Counted from the first letter of the stretch, positions 1 through 7,057 are shown. The stretch: DNA of 64,000 nt from Acidimicrobiales bacterium (GCA_047974625.1 JBKECK010000115.1:1854-65853), one strand, 5' to 3'. Notes: generated from the letters alone by a model not told the origin. A program made the numbers and translations.

Positions 1-905
1 TGGGTCTCCCCGTGCACGAACATCGAGTCCGCGGTTACGAACGGTTCGGTTAGCCGATGCCCGAGCACGATGGCCGCCGCGCCACACGCCCCGTTGGTCA
101 ACCCCTTGGACACGATGGTGGCGTCGGGCCGGTCCGGCCAGGTATCGGTGGCGAACCGGTCGCCGGTGCGGAGGAATCCGGTGGCGACCTCGTCGGCCAC
201 CACCAGATAGCCGCCGTCATCCCGTCCGGCCAGGATCGCGTCGATCAGGTCGGACGCCACCGGCACCGTCCCATTGCCGAGTACCGGCTCGATGACGAAG
301 GCGGCGATCCGTGAGCCCTGACGGTCAAGCAGACGGTGCAGGGCAGTGACGTCGTCGGCGGGAATGTGACGGATCAGGCGCTGATCCACCTTGTACATCG
401 GCTGCCCAAGATCATCGCCCGACACGGCGATGCTGCCGTAGGTCTGGCCGTGGTAGCTGTTCCGCAGGCCCACGATGAGGTCACGACTCGGCTCACCCCG
501 AAGGGCCGCCCACTGGCGGGCCAGTTTCATCACCGCGTCGTTAGCGGCGCTACCCGAGGTCGAGAACAGTACGTGACCGTAGTGGATCGGGTCCATCAGC
601 CCGGTTAGGGCCTCGGCCGCCTGTTCCGCCCAGGGGTGAGCGGTCCTGAACAGGGGCAGGTAGGTGACGCTCCGGGTCGCTTCGGCCACGGCGTCGGCCA
701 CAGCCCGGTTCCCGTAACCAAAGTTCACGTTCCACAGCCCGCTCCGGCCGCACTGGGCTTCGACCCCGTCGGCGAACCGGACTCGAGTGCCCTCGGCGTC
801 GACTACGGTCTCGCCCGGCCGCCCAAACTGGGAGGGGGGCACCAGGTAGGTCCACAGCCGGCCCCGGGAGGTCGCCGCGATCGGTGCGTTCATCACCGTG
901 GTCAT
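1..905 (-). CDS. Class III PLP-dependent aminotransferase (daptide MpaD-like); C-terminal end lies beyond the window edge
   Basis: Own minus-strand translation from the ATG at 905-903 gives MTTVMNAPIAATSRGRLWTYLVPPSQFGRPGETVVDAEG... It continues to ...DDGGYLVVADEVATGFLRTGDRFATDTWPDRPDATIVSKGLTNG... These are the class III DEV.TGF.RTG motif and the SKGL PLP-lysine motif. The frame stays open to position 1, so it is absent from the supplied track. Its start overlaps the stop of the upstream methyltransferase (ATGA). Confidence 0.85.
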   Translation of the reverse strand, partial: MTTVMNAPIAATSRGRLWTYLVPPSQFGRPGETVVDAEGTRVRFADGVEAQCGRSGLWNVNFGYGNRAVADAVAEATRSVTYLPLFRTAHPWAEQAAEALTGLMDPIHYGHVLFSTSGSAANDAVMKLARQWAALRGEPSRDLIVGLRNSYHGQTYGSIAVSGDDLGQPMYKVDQRLIRHIPADDVTALHRLLDRQGSRIAAFVIEPVLGNGTVPVASDLIDAILAGRDDGGYLVVADEVATGFLRTGDRFATDTWPDRPDATIVSKGLTNGACGAAAIVLGHRLTEPFVTADSMFVHGET

Positions 906-1702
906 GGTGTCGGCCTCGTCGTCTCCACGGCCCGGACCACACGGTCTGGCAGTTGCTGCACCGTCCGTACCGCGGTGACCTCCAGCCCGGCCTGTTCGCA
1001 CTCGCCCACGAGCTGGTCGGGATCGAGCAGCTTCACCTCGGTGGTGTACAGGGCCCGGCGGCCCCGGGGCCCGAGCGGCTGATGGAGAATCGACACGGTC
1101 CGGATCCCGGCACCATGGTCGACCCGTTCCAGAAAGACGAACAGGTCGGTCTGGCCGTGGTACGGGGCGGCGATCACGGTCTCGTGTTCGTCCACACCGT
1201 CGCCGTCGATCTCGAGCACGGAGAACACGAAGCGCCCGCGGTCGGTCAGGTGGGTGCGGGCGTTGGTGAACATCGCCTGTCGAGCGTCGTCGGGAAGTAC
1301 CGTGATCGACGTGATCCCGCAGTAGACGAGATCGAACCGCTGCTCGCAGCGCAGCCCGGCCATATCCGCTTCGACGAGCTCGAGGCGGTCGACGAGCCGA
1401 GGCCGGCCCGCGACCCGTTCCGCGAGCAGCTCGATCATGCGGGGGGCGTTGTCAACCCCGACCACCCGGTGTCCGGCGGCCAGGAGTGGGAGTGTCAACC
1501 GGCCGGACCCGCAGGCGAGCTCCAGGATCGGGGTGGAAACCCCGCGGGCCATCCTGACGACCTCATTGATCTCACTCCGGTCGGTGGCGGAGACCGCGTC
1601 GTAGGTGTCTGCCCCGTCCCGGTAGAGGTCGCCGACCATCAGATCGTCGACATCGCGCACGAGCGAGGCGGCGGTGTGGTGGAGTTCAGCGGTGGCGAGC
1701 AT
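902..1702 (-). CDS. Class I SAM-dependent methyltransferase (daptide MpaM-like)
   Basis: The track ORF 902..1744 contains the SAM-binding motif ILELACGSGRLTLPLL and the acidic loop VVGVDNAP. I place the start at the ATG at 1702 (MLATAEL...) because a GGGGAGGG Shine-Dalgarno sits about 5 nt upstream. Confidence 0.8.
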   Translation of the reverse strand: MLATAELHHTAASLVRDVDDLMVGDLYRDGADTYDAVSATDRSEINEVVRMARGVSTPILELACGSGRLTLPLLAAGHRVVGVDNAPRMIELLAERVAGRPRLVDRLELVEADMAGLRCEQRFDLVYCGITSITVLPDDARQAMFTNARTHLTDRGRFVFSVLEIDGDGVDEHETVIAAPYHGQTDLFVFLERVDHGAGIRTVSILHQPLGPRGRRALYTTEVKLLDPDQLVGECEQAGLEVTAVRTVQQLPDRVVRAVETTRPTP

Positions 1703-2798
1703 CGGAACCCTCCCCGCCCACGATGCCGCGACCGACCAGCTCAACCATCGTGGCGTTCAACCGGGCCGACAGTTCGGGTTCGCCGCCGGGATTGAGCGCG
1801 GCGAGCACACGGTCGGGGTCACCGGTGGCCTGCAGCACGGTCAGGCAGTCGGCGGCCTGGTGGCCAATGGAGAACGACCGACCCGCCGGGGTGGTCACGT
1901 AGGCCCGTTCCCGCTCCCGTACCACCAGCGCCTCGCCCGACGCACCCGCTGAATCGGCGAGTTCGGGTCGGACGGGGGGCCCGAATCCGTCCACGCTGAG
2001 CTGGGTGCCGTCCCGCAACGTCAGGGTCCGCAGCACCCCGAGGGCTTGGAGGTAGCGGGACAACCACGGGCGGGCCCGGCAGCCCTCCCGAACCAGGTCG
2101 GCGTGGAGCACGTCCCCGAGGTGCAGCTCGGTGCAGCCGTCCGACGATGAGGCCCGGAACCGTTCGGCGATGCTGGGGTAGCCATCGTCGACATGGCCGA
2201 GCGGCGTCCCACCCGGGGCGATACCGACCTGGCCGTCGGCGGCGATGTGGATGTTGCCGAGGCCGACGCAGGGTCGATGGCCGCCCAGGGCACAGTGATC
2301 CGCCAGTTCGACCAACGGGTGGATGAGCATGTCGGGGAACTCCCCGGTGGCCCGGGCCCGGTCCGCGTCTTCGAAGTAGAGTTCGGCGTCCTCGTCGGAG
2401 GTGAGCCGCAGCACGGTTGGGCCGAGCACGGGCACGAACGGGCCGACCGCGTACTCGAGTGTCTGGATCCGGAACGATCCGACGAGGCCGAGTTCGTCGC
2501 CGCCCATGGCCAGGCTGCCCTCGTACTCGACGACCCGGTCGTCGGCTCGATGGTCCCCGCCGGGGACGAACACGACCGACGACGGTTCGAGCCAGCCCTT
2601 GGCGGGGTCGAGCACCGCGTCGAGGAAGGCGCCGGTCTCCAGGATGACGTTCCGGGTCCGATGCGTCGTGTCCGTGTGGGGGGTGCGGCCCGTGAGCAGG
2701 GCCCCGATCCGGTCGGTCAGATCGATCGGGCGGAGCTGATCGGCGTCGGGTTCCGGCAGGGCACGGCCCTGGGCCTCAATGGTGGGATGGTTGGTCAT
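1686..2798 (-). CDS. 370-aa protein without recognisable catalytic motifs; position fits a daptide MpaB-like RiPP recognition or scaffold protein
   Basis: A complete ORF in the track sits between the M50 protease and the methyltransferase within the operon. I see no cofactor or catalytic signature. The assignment rests on gene context only. Confidence 0.5.
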   Translation of the reverse strand: MTNHPTIEAQGRALPEPDADQLRPIDLTDRIGALLTGRTPHTDTTHRTRNVILETGAFLDAVLDPAKGWLEPSSVVFVPGGDHRADDRVVEYEGSLAMGGDELGLVGSFRIQTLEYAVGPFVPVLGPTVLRLTSDEDAELYFEDADRARATGEFPDMLIHPLVELADHCALGGHRPCVGLGNIHIAADGQVGIAPGGTPLGHVDDGYPSIAERFRASSSDGCTELHLGDVLHADLVREGCRARPWLSRYLQALGVLRTLTLRDGTQLSVDGFGPPVRPELADSAGASGEALVVRERERAYVTTPAGRSFSIGHQAADCLTVLQATGDPDRVLAALNPGGEPELSARLNATMVELVGRGIVGGEGSDARHR

Positions 2799-2864
2799 GG
2801 ATGCGCCTTTCGGGGGATTCGGCTGGTGGACATGGCGTTGACGTGGGGGCTCGGCGGTGACGGC

Positions 2865-6594: not shown

Positions 6595-6660
6595 TATTTG
6601 TTCCCCTTTTTTCATTGGTATCTGTTGATATAGTCGTGATCAAGAAGGGCGGCAGGGCCC

Positions 6661-6840
6661 TCAGGTAAGCGCCAAGCCGAGACCGACGCCGCTCGCGATG
6701 CCGACGGCCACCGTGAACCCGGCCGCGAATCCGCGACCGAAGTCGCTCCAAAAGCCGGGGGCCTCGAGAGAGTCGAGTTCATCGATGCTGAAATCGAGGG
6801 CGTCAAGAATGTGCTGATCATTGAGTGTCTGAATAGGCAT
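6661..6840 (-). CDS. Daptide-type RiPP precursor peptide, 59 aa, C-terminal Thr
   Basis: Not in the track. Own translation: MPIQTLNDQHILDALDFSIDELDSLEAPGFWSDFGRGFAAGFTVAVGIASGVGLGLALT-stop. An AAAGGGAGA Shine-Dalgarno lies upstream of the ATG at 6840. Confidence 0.8.
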   Translation of the reverse strand: MPIQTLNDQHILDALDFSIDELDSLEAPGFWSDFGRGFAAGFTVAVGIASGVGLGLALT

Positions 6841-6904
6841 AGCATGTCTCCCTTTGAATCTGAGTCCTGTTCATGTGTTTGCAGATGGCGTGTTCCGGTT
6901 GCGC

Positions 6905-7057
6905 TCAGGTCGCGATCAGCACACCGCCCGCAACGGCGCCGCCGACGGTGAGCACTCCGGCGGCGACGCCGAGCCAGAAGCCCCAGCCGGGAGCATCGAG
7001 ACTGTCAAGTTCCTCGATATCGAAATCGACACTGCGGGCATGACTCATTGCAAACAT
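6905..7057 (-). CDS. Daptide-type RiPP precursor peptide, 50 aa, divergent, C-terminal Thr
   Basis: Not in the track. Own translation: MFAMSHARSVDFDIEELDSLDAPGWGFWLGVAAGVLTVGGAVAGGVLIAT-stop. An AAGGAGAG Shine-Dalgarno lies 4 nt upstream of the ATG at 7057. It shares the DF.I.ELD.L.APG leader motif with the other two precursors. Confidence 0.75.
   Translation of the reverse strand: MFAMSHARSVDFDIEELDSLDAPGWGFWLGVAAGVLTVGGAVAGGVLIAT

Follow-up and report, generated by a model that had tools for sequence, protein, structure and literature searches.

Daptides are small, membrane-active ribosomally synthesized and posttranslationally modified peptides (RiPPs) in which the C-terminal Thr becomes a dimethylated amine. 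The class dates from 2023, when it comprised 483 clusters (Ren et al. 2023, PMC10036551), and by 2025 the catalogue had grown to 1,034 (Dommaraju et al. 2025, PMC12670281). The pathway chemistry has been demonstrated for the mpa system of Microbacterium paraoxydans (PMC10036551) and for tfDap from Thermobifida fusca (PMC12670281), with tfDap and saDap (from Streptomyces azureus) shown to proceed in vitro from aminoacetone to the amine and then to the dimethylamine (PMC12670281). Here, we analyzed a 64,000-nt stretch of DNA (the window) from an Acidimicrobiales bacterium, the source being the metagenome-assembled genome (MAG) of an uncultured organism. Positions 1 to 7057 of the window, on the minus strand, almost certainly carry a chromosomal daptide biosynthetic gene cluster, for which we also propose a pathway. 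A first-pass annotation of the window had reached the same assignment and had correctly named the reference cluster, mpa of M. paraoxydans (Ren et al. 2023). It had also described the class as young and sparsely sampled; with the number of clusters now catalogued, and with the NCBI annotation pipeline having dedicated equivalog models for every daptide component, the locus is an ordinary member.

Gene content and family assignments

The cluster genes follow one another along the minus strand in the order three precursors, a 56-aa membrane peptide, an ATP-binding cassette (ABC) ATPase, a permease, a protease, a RiPP recognition element (RRE) protein, a methyltransferase, and an aminotransferase (Table 1). 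All open reading frames (ORFs) listed in the first-pass annotation were found at their coordinates on this strand, as were the ATGA start/stop overlaps at 902-905, 5266-5269, and 6054-6057 and, in the translations, each of the motifs HELAH, NLLPFIRLDGY, ELACGSGR, ADEVATGF, and SKGLTNG. The accompanying description of a tightly packed operon holds for the three overlapping junctions and breaks down at a 190-nt spacer (6225-6414) that contains a strong hairpin.

Table 1. Features of the daptide cluster, listed in the direction of transcription (family cut-offs in parentheses)
Feature	Coordinates (strand)	Size	Family match	Remarks
Putative promoter region	7058..7245 (-)			Noncoding, upstream of A1, lower G+C
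Precursor A1	6905..7057 (-)	50 aa	NF041808, 33.5 bits (25)	
Precursor A2	6661..6840 (-)	59 aa	NF041808, 32.9 bits (25)	
Precursor A3	6415..6615 (-)	66 aa from ATG at 6615	NF041808, 29.1 bits (25)	
Hairpin	6350..6395 (-)			Perfect 18-bp G+C-rich stem plus UUUU, about 20 nt past A3 stop
Two-segment membrane protein	6054..6224 (-)	56 aa		Stop overlaps ATPase start (ATGA)
ABC transporter ATP-binding protein	5266..6057 (-)	263 aa	PF00005, 99.1 bits	
ABC-2 type permease	4523..5269 (-)	248 aa	PF12730, 29.8 bits	
Predicted daptide leader peptidase	2865..4520 (-)	551 aa		M50/site-2-type intramembrane metalloprotease, N-terminal RRE region
MpaB/DapB-type DUF-RRE protein (DUF, domain of unknown function)	1686..2798 (-)	370 aa	NF041823, 257.6 bits (150)	
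S-adenosylmethionine (SAM)-dependent N-methyltransferase, MpaM/DapM type	902..1744 (-)	280 aa (longest ORF)	NF041820, 218.1 bits (175)	
Pyridoxal phosphate (PLP) class III aminotransferase, MpaD/DapD type	1..905 (-)	First 301 of 442 aa		Cut at window edge

Daptide NCBIfam models were the best match for the precursors, the RRE protein, the methyltransferase, the protease, and the aminotransferase, bearing out the daptide assignment. The aminotransferase fragment in the window scored 402.3 bits with NF041821 (cut-off, 450), and the full-length protein (P0003; L013 972-2300, see below) reached 516.2 bits. It also matched PF00202 (147 bits), and its nearest named homologues are daptide aminotransferases (52-58% identity). 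A scan of Joint Genome Institute metagenomes with the full aminotransferase returned only relatives that were at most 47% identical.

The dehydrogenase of the pathway, which had been predicted to lie just left of position 1, was found on a near-identical overlapping contig, co-oriented with the aminotransferase. This 3,402-bp contig (L013) comes from a sibling sample and was reached via P0273, a 442-aa member of the aminotransferase's 90% cluster. It differs from window positions 1-1876 by 2 mismatches in 1876 nt, both synonymous (99.9% identical), and runs 1,526 nt past the window edge, through the rest of the aminotransferase and into a co-oriented ORF of the iron-type alcohol dehydrogenase (Fe-ADH) family. 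The Fe-ADH ORF, at least 377 aa long, overlaps the aminotransferase end by 31 nt, the gene start being at about -393 in window terms. It matches PF00465 (61.5 bits; gathering score, 31.3), and its best NCBIfam match is the daptide dehydrogenase model NF041822 (208.7 bits), the runner-up family scoring 57 bits.

None of these results contradicts the daptide assignment, and those that count against it are few. When scored with daptide profile hidden Markov models (HMMs), the check proposed in the first-pass annotation, the precursors, RRE protein, methyltransferase, and full-length aminotransferase came out above cut-off, and the protease, at 289.8 bits, just under the NF041824 equivalog cut-off of 300. 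The dehydrogenase is likewise under the NF041822 equivalog cut-off of 300, its relatives scoring 216 to 243 bits. Moreover, the dehydrogenase was read on the sibling-sample contig and not on the window's own, with its last 15 to 20 residues lying beyond the end of L013; a search with the dehydrogenase of a related cluster (L003) returned a 94% identical copy, not the window's own gene. Because both enzymes score under their equivalog cut-offs, the lineage is peripheral to the curated protease and dehydrogenase families, for which the curated HMMs reach this Acidimicrobiales lineage only marginally.

Precursor peptides

In all three precursors, Thr stands directly before the stop codon, as had been noted before, and each matches the daptide-type RiPP model NF041808. 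Their conserved leader reads …D-F-x-I-[DE]-E-L-D-x-L-[DE]-[AS]-P, with ELDSLDAP, ELDSLEAP, and ELDALESP as the individual motifs, followed by cores of 27 to 31 aa. A six-frame scan of the 64 kb for [DE]L[DE]x[LMIV][DE]xP with no more than 60 aa to the stop gave three matches only, i.e., the three precursor ORFs, each ending in T, and the pattern is therefore not a product of chance. The A1 leader ends in ...EELDSLDAP and precedes the predicted core GWGFWLGVAAGVLTVGGAVAGGVLIAT (27 aa, C-terminal Thr); the A2 leader (...LDALDFSIDELDSLEAP) precedes the predicted core GFWSDFGRGFAAGFTVAVGIASGVGLGLALT (31 aa), and the predicted core of A3 is GFWSDFGRGFVVGVGVAGSVAGAVGLGIALT (31 aa). Two leader positions, L(-7) and M(-4), proved essential in MpaA (Ren et al. 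2023, PMC10036551); here, L(-7) is retained, as is P(-1), and M(-4) is replaced conservatively by Leu.

The cores are hydrophobic (grand average of hydropathy, 1.1-1.6) and rich in Gly, Ala, and Val, with an aromatic N terminus (GFWSDFGRGF or GWGFW) and, in A2 and A3, a Trp at core position 3. A2 and A3 are 69% identical. With the MpaA1 and MpaA2 equivalog models, the precursors reached 18.5 to 26.1 bits, under the cut-off of 40. An RBS-like sequence (ribosome-binding site), aaggaga, is present upstream of A1. For A3, a GTG start at 6594, giving 59 aa, is more likely than the ATG at 6615 because an RBS-like aaggggaa lies 6 nt upstream of it and the product is then colinear with A2.

Modification enzymes and proposed pathway

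The 370-aa protein had been listed as having no catalytic motif; the ORF is indeed there, and what escaped recognition was its identity as an MpaB-type DUF-RRE protein. Because it scores 257.6 bits with NF041823 against a cut-off of 150, over profile positions 3-316 of 331, the protein is, as judged from its sequence, the MpaB-type DUF-RRE partner that the oxidative decarboxylase would obligatorily require. It had no other family match and no sequence relative in the PDB. An AlphaFold (AF2) model built from a two-sequence alignment was poor (mean predicted local distance difference test score, 41.5) and was moderately confident only at residues ~280-360, which form three strands and three helices (beta3-alpha3). 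Its top Foldseek matches were the RRE domains of TbiB1 and PbtF, with nonsignificant E values of about 0.7 to 0.9, giving weak structural support to a putative C-terminal RRE domain. The MpaB family has 257 representatives among the 1.84 billion searched, the nearest one outside the window's own cluster being 37 to 43% identical; neither of two scans of GTDB genomes, one with the RRE protein and one with the two-sequence alignment, turned up a relative.

NF041824 is the clear best match of the protease (E = 3.4e-86; profile positions 2-378 of 379), and the L003 counterpart scores 285.8 bits with the same model. The prior call of an M50 protease stands as regards the motifs HELAH and NLLPFIRLDGY, the underlying HExxH and NxxPxxxLDG being invariant across relatives; the Pfam M50 model itself gave 21.6 bits, under its threshold of 27.2. 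A tail of ~165 aa extends past the NCBIfam model and was considered as a possible oddity, a notion dropped since the counterparts in L003, L004, and the Amycolatopsis cluster L007 measure 548 to 565 aa. The methyltransferase also matches Methyltransf_25 (61 bits), and its start is likely the ATG at 1702 (266 aa), because the gene caller picked that start on L013.

By analogy with the characterized mpa and tfDap systems, the conserved precursor leader would be bound by the C-terminal RRE of the MpaB-type protein, which would present the C-terminal Thr to the NAD(P)+-dependent oxidative decarboxylase of the Fe-ADH family, yielding a C-terminal aminoacetone (-46.005 Da). The PLP aminotransferase would then turn the ketone into a primary amine, and the SAM methyltransferase would convert this amine to (S)-N2,N2-dimethyl-1,2-propanediamine (Dmp), for a net change of -16.943 Da. 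The RRE-M50 intramembrane protease is predicted to cut the leader off after Pro(-1). Export of the hydrophobic, doubly amino-terminated peptides, protection of the producer, or both would fall to the ATPase and the ABC-2 permease, probably together with the small membrane protein. The computed [M+H]+ values of the predicted Dmp products are 2482.433 (A1), 2984.614 (A2), and 2906.604 (A3).

Transporter and small membrane protein

A multicomponent ABC transporter is co-located with the biosynthetic genes, its PF00005 and PF12730 genes overlapping by ATGA. The best NCBIfam match of the ATPase is the lantibiotic-protection ABC ATPase model TIGR03740 (177.8 bits, under its cut-off). The ATPase is 62%, 51%, and 52% identical to its counterparts in L003, L004, and L007, and the permease is 47% and 38% identical to those of L003 and L004, respectively.

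The 56-aa protein has hydrophobic segments at about residues 3-22 and 29-52, according to hydropathy, and gave no match in Pfam and NCBIfam scans. It was considered as a fourth precursor and rejected, as its C terminus is Ala, the leader motif is absent, and NF041808 does not match it. Homologues of 54 and 59 aa occupy the same position in L003 and L004 (30-36% identity across the three proteins), so the presence of an extra membrane peptide is not the distinguishing trait that it had been taken for. In the Amycolatopsis cluster L007, no small membrane ORF was found. Because the gene is kept in L003 and L004 and absent in L007, it is a lineage feature, common to a small subclade of Acidimicrobiales type. 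The protein may serve as an accessory membrane component of the transporter or as an immunity peptide; that it represents a dedicated third component of a daptide exporter, or a small self-immunity peptide, is a tentative suggestion and on balance a doubtful one. If it were true, the 56-aa protein would provide producer protection distinct from HomI of the staphylococcal daptides, to our knowledge the only daptide immunity factor studied so far.

Possible transcription signals

The fold of the 80-nt segment 6335-6414, which includes the hairpin past the A3 stop, has an energy of -57 kcal/mol (z = -7.8), with none of 200 shuffles equally stable. A simple terminator scan missed this hairpin, whose U-tract has only 4 U. 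The hairpin may act as a partial intrinsic terminator that sets the precursor-to-enzyme transcript ratio, probably letting precursor transcripts exceed those of the enzymes. A conserved attenuator role is supported by L003, where a hairpin and U-tract of unrelated sequence (369-409) are found at the same place, right after the last precursor.

The G+C content drops to 0.57-0.61 at 6501-7500, compared to about 0.70 elsewhere in the window, and the noncoding segment 7058-7245 is the likely promoter region of the cluster; a scan for the sigma-70 consensus found no promoter for it. An Rfam search gave no match inside the cluster. The sole gathering-level Rfam matches in the window were three tRNA genes, all on the minus strand (Val-TAC, 14565-14639; Met-CAT, 35794-35868; and Asn-GTT, 50198-50273).

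Related clusters and conservation of gene order

The architecture persists in relatives of only 37 to 73% identity. In L003, whose aminotransferase is 73% identical, the gene order is the same as in the window from the precursors through the Fe-ADH gene. The aminotransferases of L004, L005, and L006 are 63% identical; L004 matches the window in order starting at the small membrane gene, immediately upstream of which no precursor was located, and in L005 and L006, on shorter contigs, the order is kept from the protease or from the gene upstream of the RRE protein. The Amycolatopsis cluster L007 has a different order, with divergently transcribed precursors, a YcaO gene, and two permeases. Divergence from L003 is uneven, the aminotransferase being 73% and the MpaB-type RRE protein only 37% identical. 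YcaO genes were located after the Fe-ADH gene at 10846-12081 in L004, 6150-7385 in L005, and 12377-13594 in L007. The best NCBIfam match of the L004 YcaO, a weak one, is to a SagD-type cyclodehydratase domain (68 bits), in keeping with the group of divergent, daptide-associated YcaO proteins reported in 2025.

The nearest cluster belongs to a sister Acidimicrobiales MAG (L002; MFV0523567.1 and MFV0523569.1), a different species-level lineage, and shares, in the same order, the RRE protein (71-72% identical), the methyltransferase, the aminotransferase (87%), and an overlapping next gene. The comparison covers 3.8 kb of DNA, with the precursors and transporter lying outside it, and the 35-aa start of the next gene, too short for the purpose, had no HMM match. 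NCBI already names the proteins of this cluster as daptide proteins, e.g., daptide biosynthesis RiPP recognition protein. The two clusters probably share their chromosomal neighborhood, because the contig of the sister MAG carries an amidohydrolase with a counterpart at 24254-25420 in the window. Housekeeping proteins of the window fall in the same 90%-identity clusters as NCBI Acidimicrobiales MAG proteins, whereas for the daptide proteins the identity between the sister MAG and the window is 71 to 87%.

Alternative readings of the locus

The alternative that fares best is a cluster diverted by YcaO, in which a dapY-type YcaO gene past the dehydrogenase would capture the monomethylated secondary amine so that some or all of the products end in 3,4-dimethylimidazoline and their mass would change by about -48.97 Da from that of the unmodified core. 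YcaO genes occur frequently in daptide clusters, where they form the imidazoline (Dommaraju et al. 2025, PMC12670281), and one directly follows the Fe-ADH gene in L004 and L005 (63% aminotransferase identity) and in the Amycolatopsis cluster. No YcaO (PF02624) was found inside the window, and since L013 ends inside the dehydrogenase, the case in the window's own lineage rests on these relatives. Among them, the closest that reaches past the Fe-ADH gene, L003 (73%, same order), has a terminator-like hairpin after it and no further gene start, YcaO included, in the last 194 nt. We consider the diversion improbable, although not negligibly so, and Dmp remains the expected terminus.

That the cluster is silent or decaying, its genes recognizable but no mature daptide being made, is very unlikely. 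The neighboring hydrolase gene appears frameshifted, the protease and dehydrogenase score under their equivalog cut-offs, and the source is an uncultured MAG, all of which would be compatible with decay. Within the cluster, however, all 10 ORFs are intact with a coding-type G+C content at third codon positions (0.82-0.91), the catalytic motifs are undamaged, and start/stop overlaps consistent with translational coupling have been kept; both differences from L013 are synonymous, and the architecture has been retained despite the divergence of the relatives. A non-daptide RiPP pathway sharing an aminotransferase, a methyltransferase, and an M50 protease, which generic Pfam labels (Aminotran_3, Methyltransf_25, and a weak M50) alone would not discriminate from a daptide one, is effectively refuted by the daptide-model scores of the core genes and dehydrogenase, since these models are far ahead (516 bits versus 200 for the next family in the case of the aminotransferase), the RRE protein matches no other family, and the precursors fit the daptide RiPP model, with Thr at their C termini.

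Neighborhood of the cluster

An alpha/beta-hydrolase gene just upstream of the cluster (7185-8361, minus strand) looks disrupted. Its 330-aa ORF (Hydrolase_4/Abhydrolase_1) stops at 7369, shortly past a run of seven C at 7400-7406, and the C-terminal motifs expected of it are picked up in two further frames, RPLLLLHGQDDRVTPV in ORF 7185-7439 and LYPGADHCGGYF...FLARR in ORF 7246-7338, the gene being either a pseudogene or the victim of an assembly indel. The longest ORFs of a molybdopterin oxidoreductase (8195-10255, plus strand) and of the hydrolase (7369-8361, minus strand) share ~165 nt at the 5' end of each (8195-8361), which means that the two genes are transcribed divergently and that one of them, or both, probably has an internal start.

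Luciferase-like monooxygenases act as LanJ-type partners in some daptide clusters. One such gene (16111-17124, minus strand; PF00296, 165 bits), some 9 kb away from the cluster, was considered as a LanJ-type tailoring gene; given the distance, the unrelated genes in between, and the absence of a LanKC from the 10 ORFs scanned in the interval 7369-22170, it is probably unconnected. Elsewhere in the window, at 39179-39309, there is a G+C-rich 63-bp tandem repeat (2.1 copies, 85% matches) that is Pro/Ala coding in appearance.

Comparison with described daptide systems

The locus adds three new daptide core sequences and a cluster from the Acidimicrobiales, with the sister cluster already labeled as daptide by NCBI. 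It leaves the known chemistry and the class unchanged, and its practical value is limited to genome mining and additional enzyme variants for C-terminal peptide engineering. The order was not found in the searchable supplementary texts of the two main daptide papers, weak evidence that it may be unsampled in the published daptide sets. Of the traits by which the cluster had initially been set apart, two more fall within the range of the class: core sequences vary within daptide clusters, so the divergence of one precursor is no peculiarity, and neither gene order nor the number of precursors is well conserved (Ren et al. 2023, PMC10036551), so the transporter-first arrangement is uninformative.

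The hom (hominicin) cluster of Staphylococcus hominis (PMC12749797) has in common with ours the daptide class and the conversion of a C-terminal Thr to an amine. It is of a Bacillota type, with a short-chain dehydrogenase instead of Fe-ADH, a serine peptidase, and lanthipeptide-type dehydration. The hom study raises the question of producer immunity and its authors liken HomI to the membrane insertase YidC (PMC12749797); the window has no homI-like gene and, instead, the ABC-2 transporter and the 56-aa membrane peptide.

With tfDap and saDap (PMC12670281), the cluster shares the core set dapA/B/C/D/M/P/T1/T2. The Trp of A2 and A3 stands at core position 3, a position that is reported to help TfDapA1 engage TfDapB. 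Both systems differ in adding a YcaO, for an imidazoline terminus, and tfDap also has a LanKC/LanJ pair, neither of which is present in the window.

The comparison with mpa of M. paraoxydans DSM 15019 (PMC10036551) was made on gene families and features. The differences concern taxonomy, Micrococcales versus Acidimicrobiales here, and the precursors, which in the window match the general daptide model and not the MpaA1/MpaA2 equivalogs, have Leu and Ser/Ala where MpaA has Met(-4) and Pro(-5), and possess longer (27-31 aa), Gly-rich cores. The two clusters nevertheless have in common three precursors with an ELxxMEAP-type leader motif, hydrophobic core, and C-terminal Thr, together with an MpaB-type DUF-RRE protein, an Fe-ADH-family decarboxylase, a PLP aminotransferase, a SAM methyltransferase, an ABC transporter, and an RRE-M50 protease (in the window, one just under the curated cut-off), and would share the three-step chemistry that leads from Thr to Dmp.

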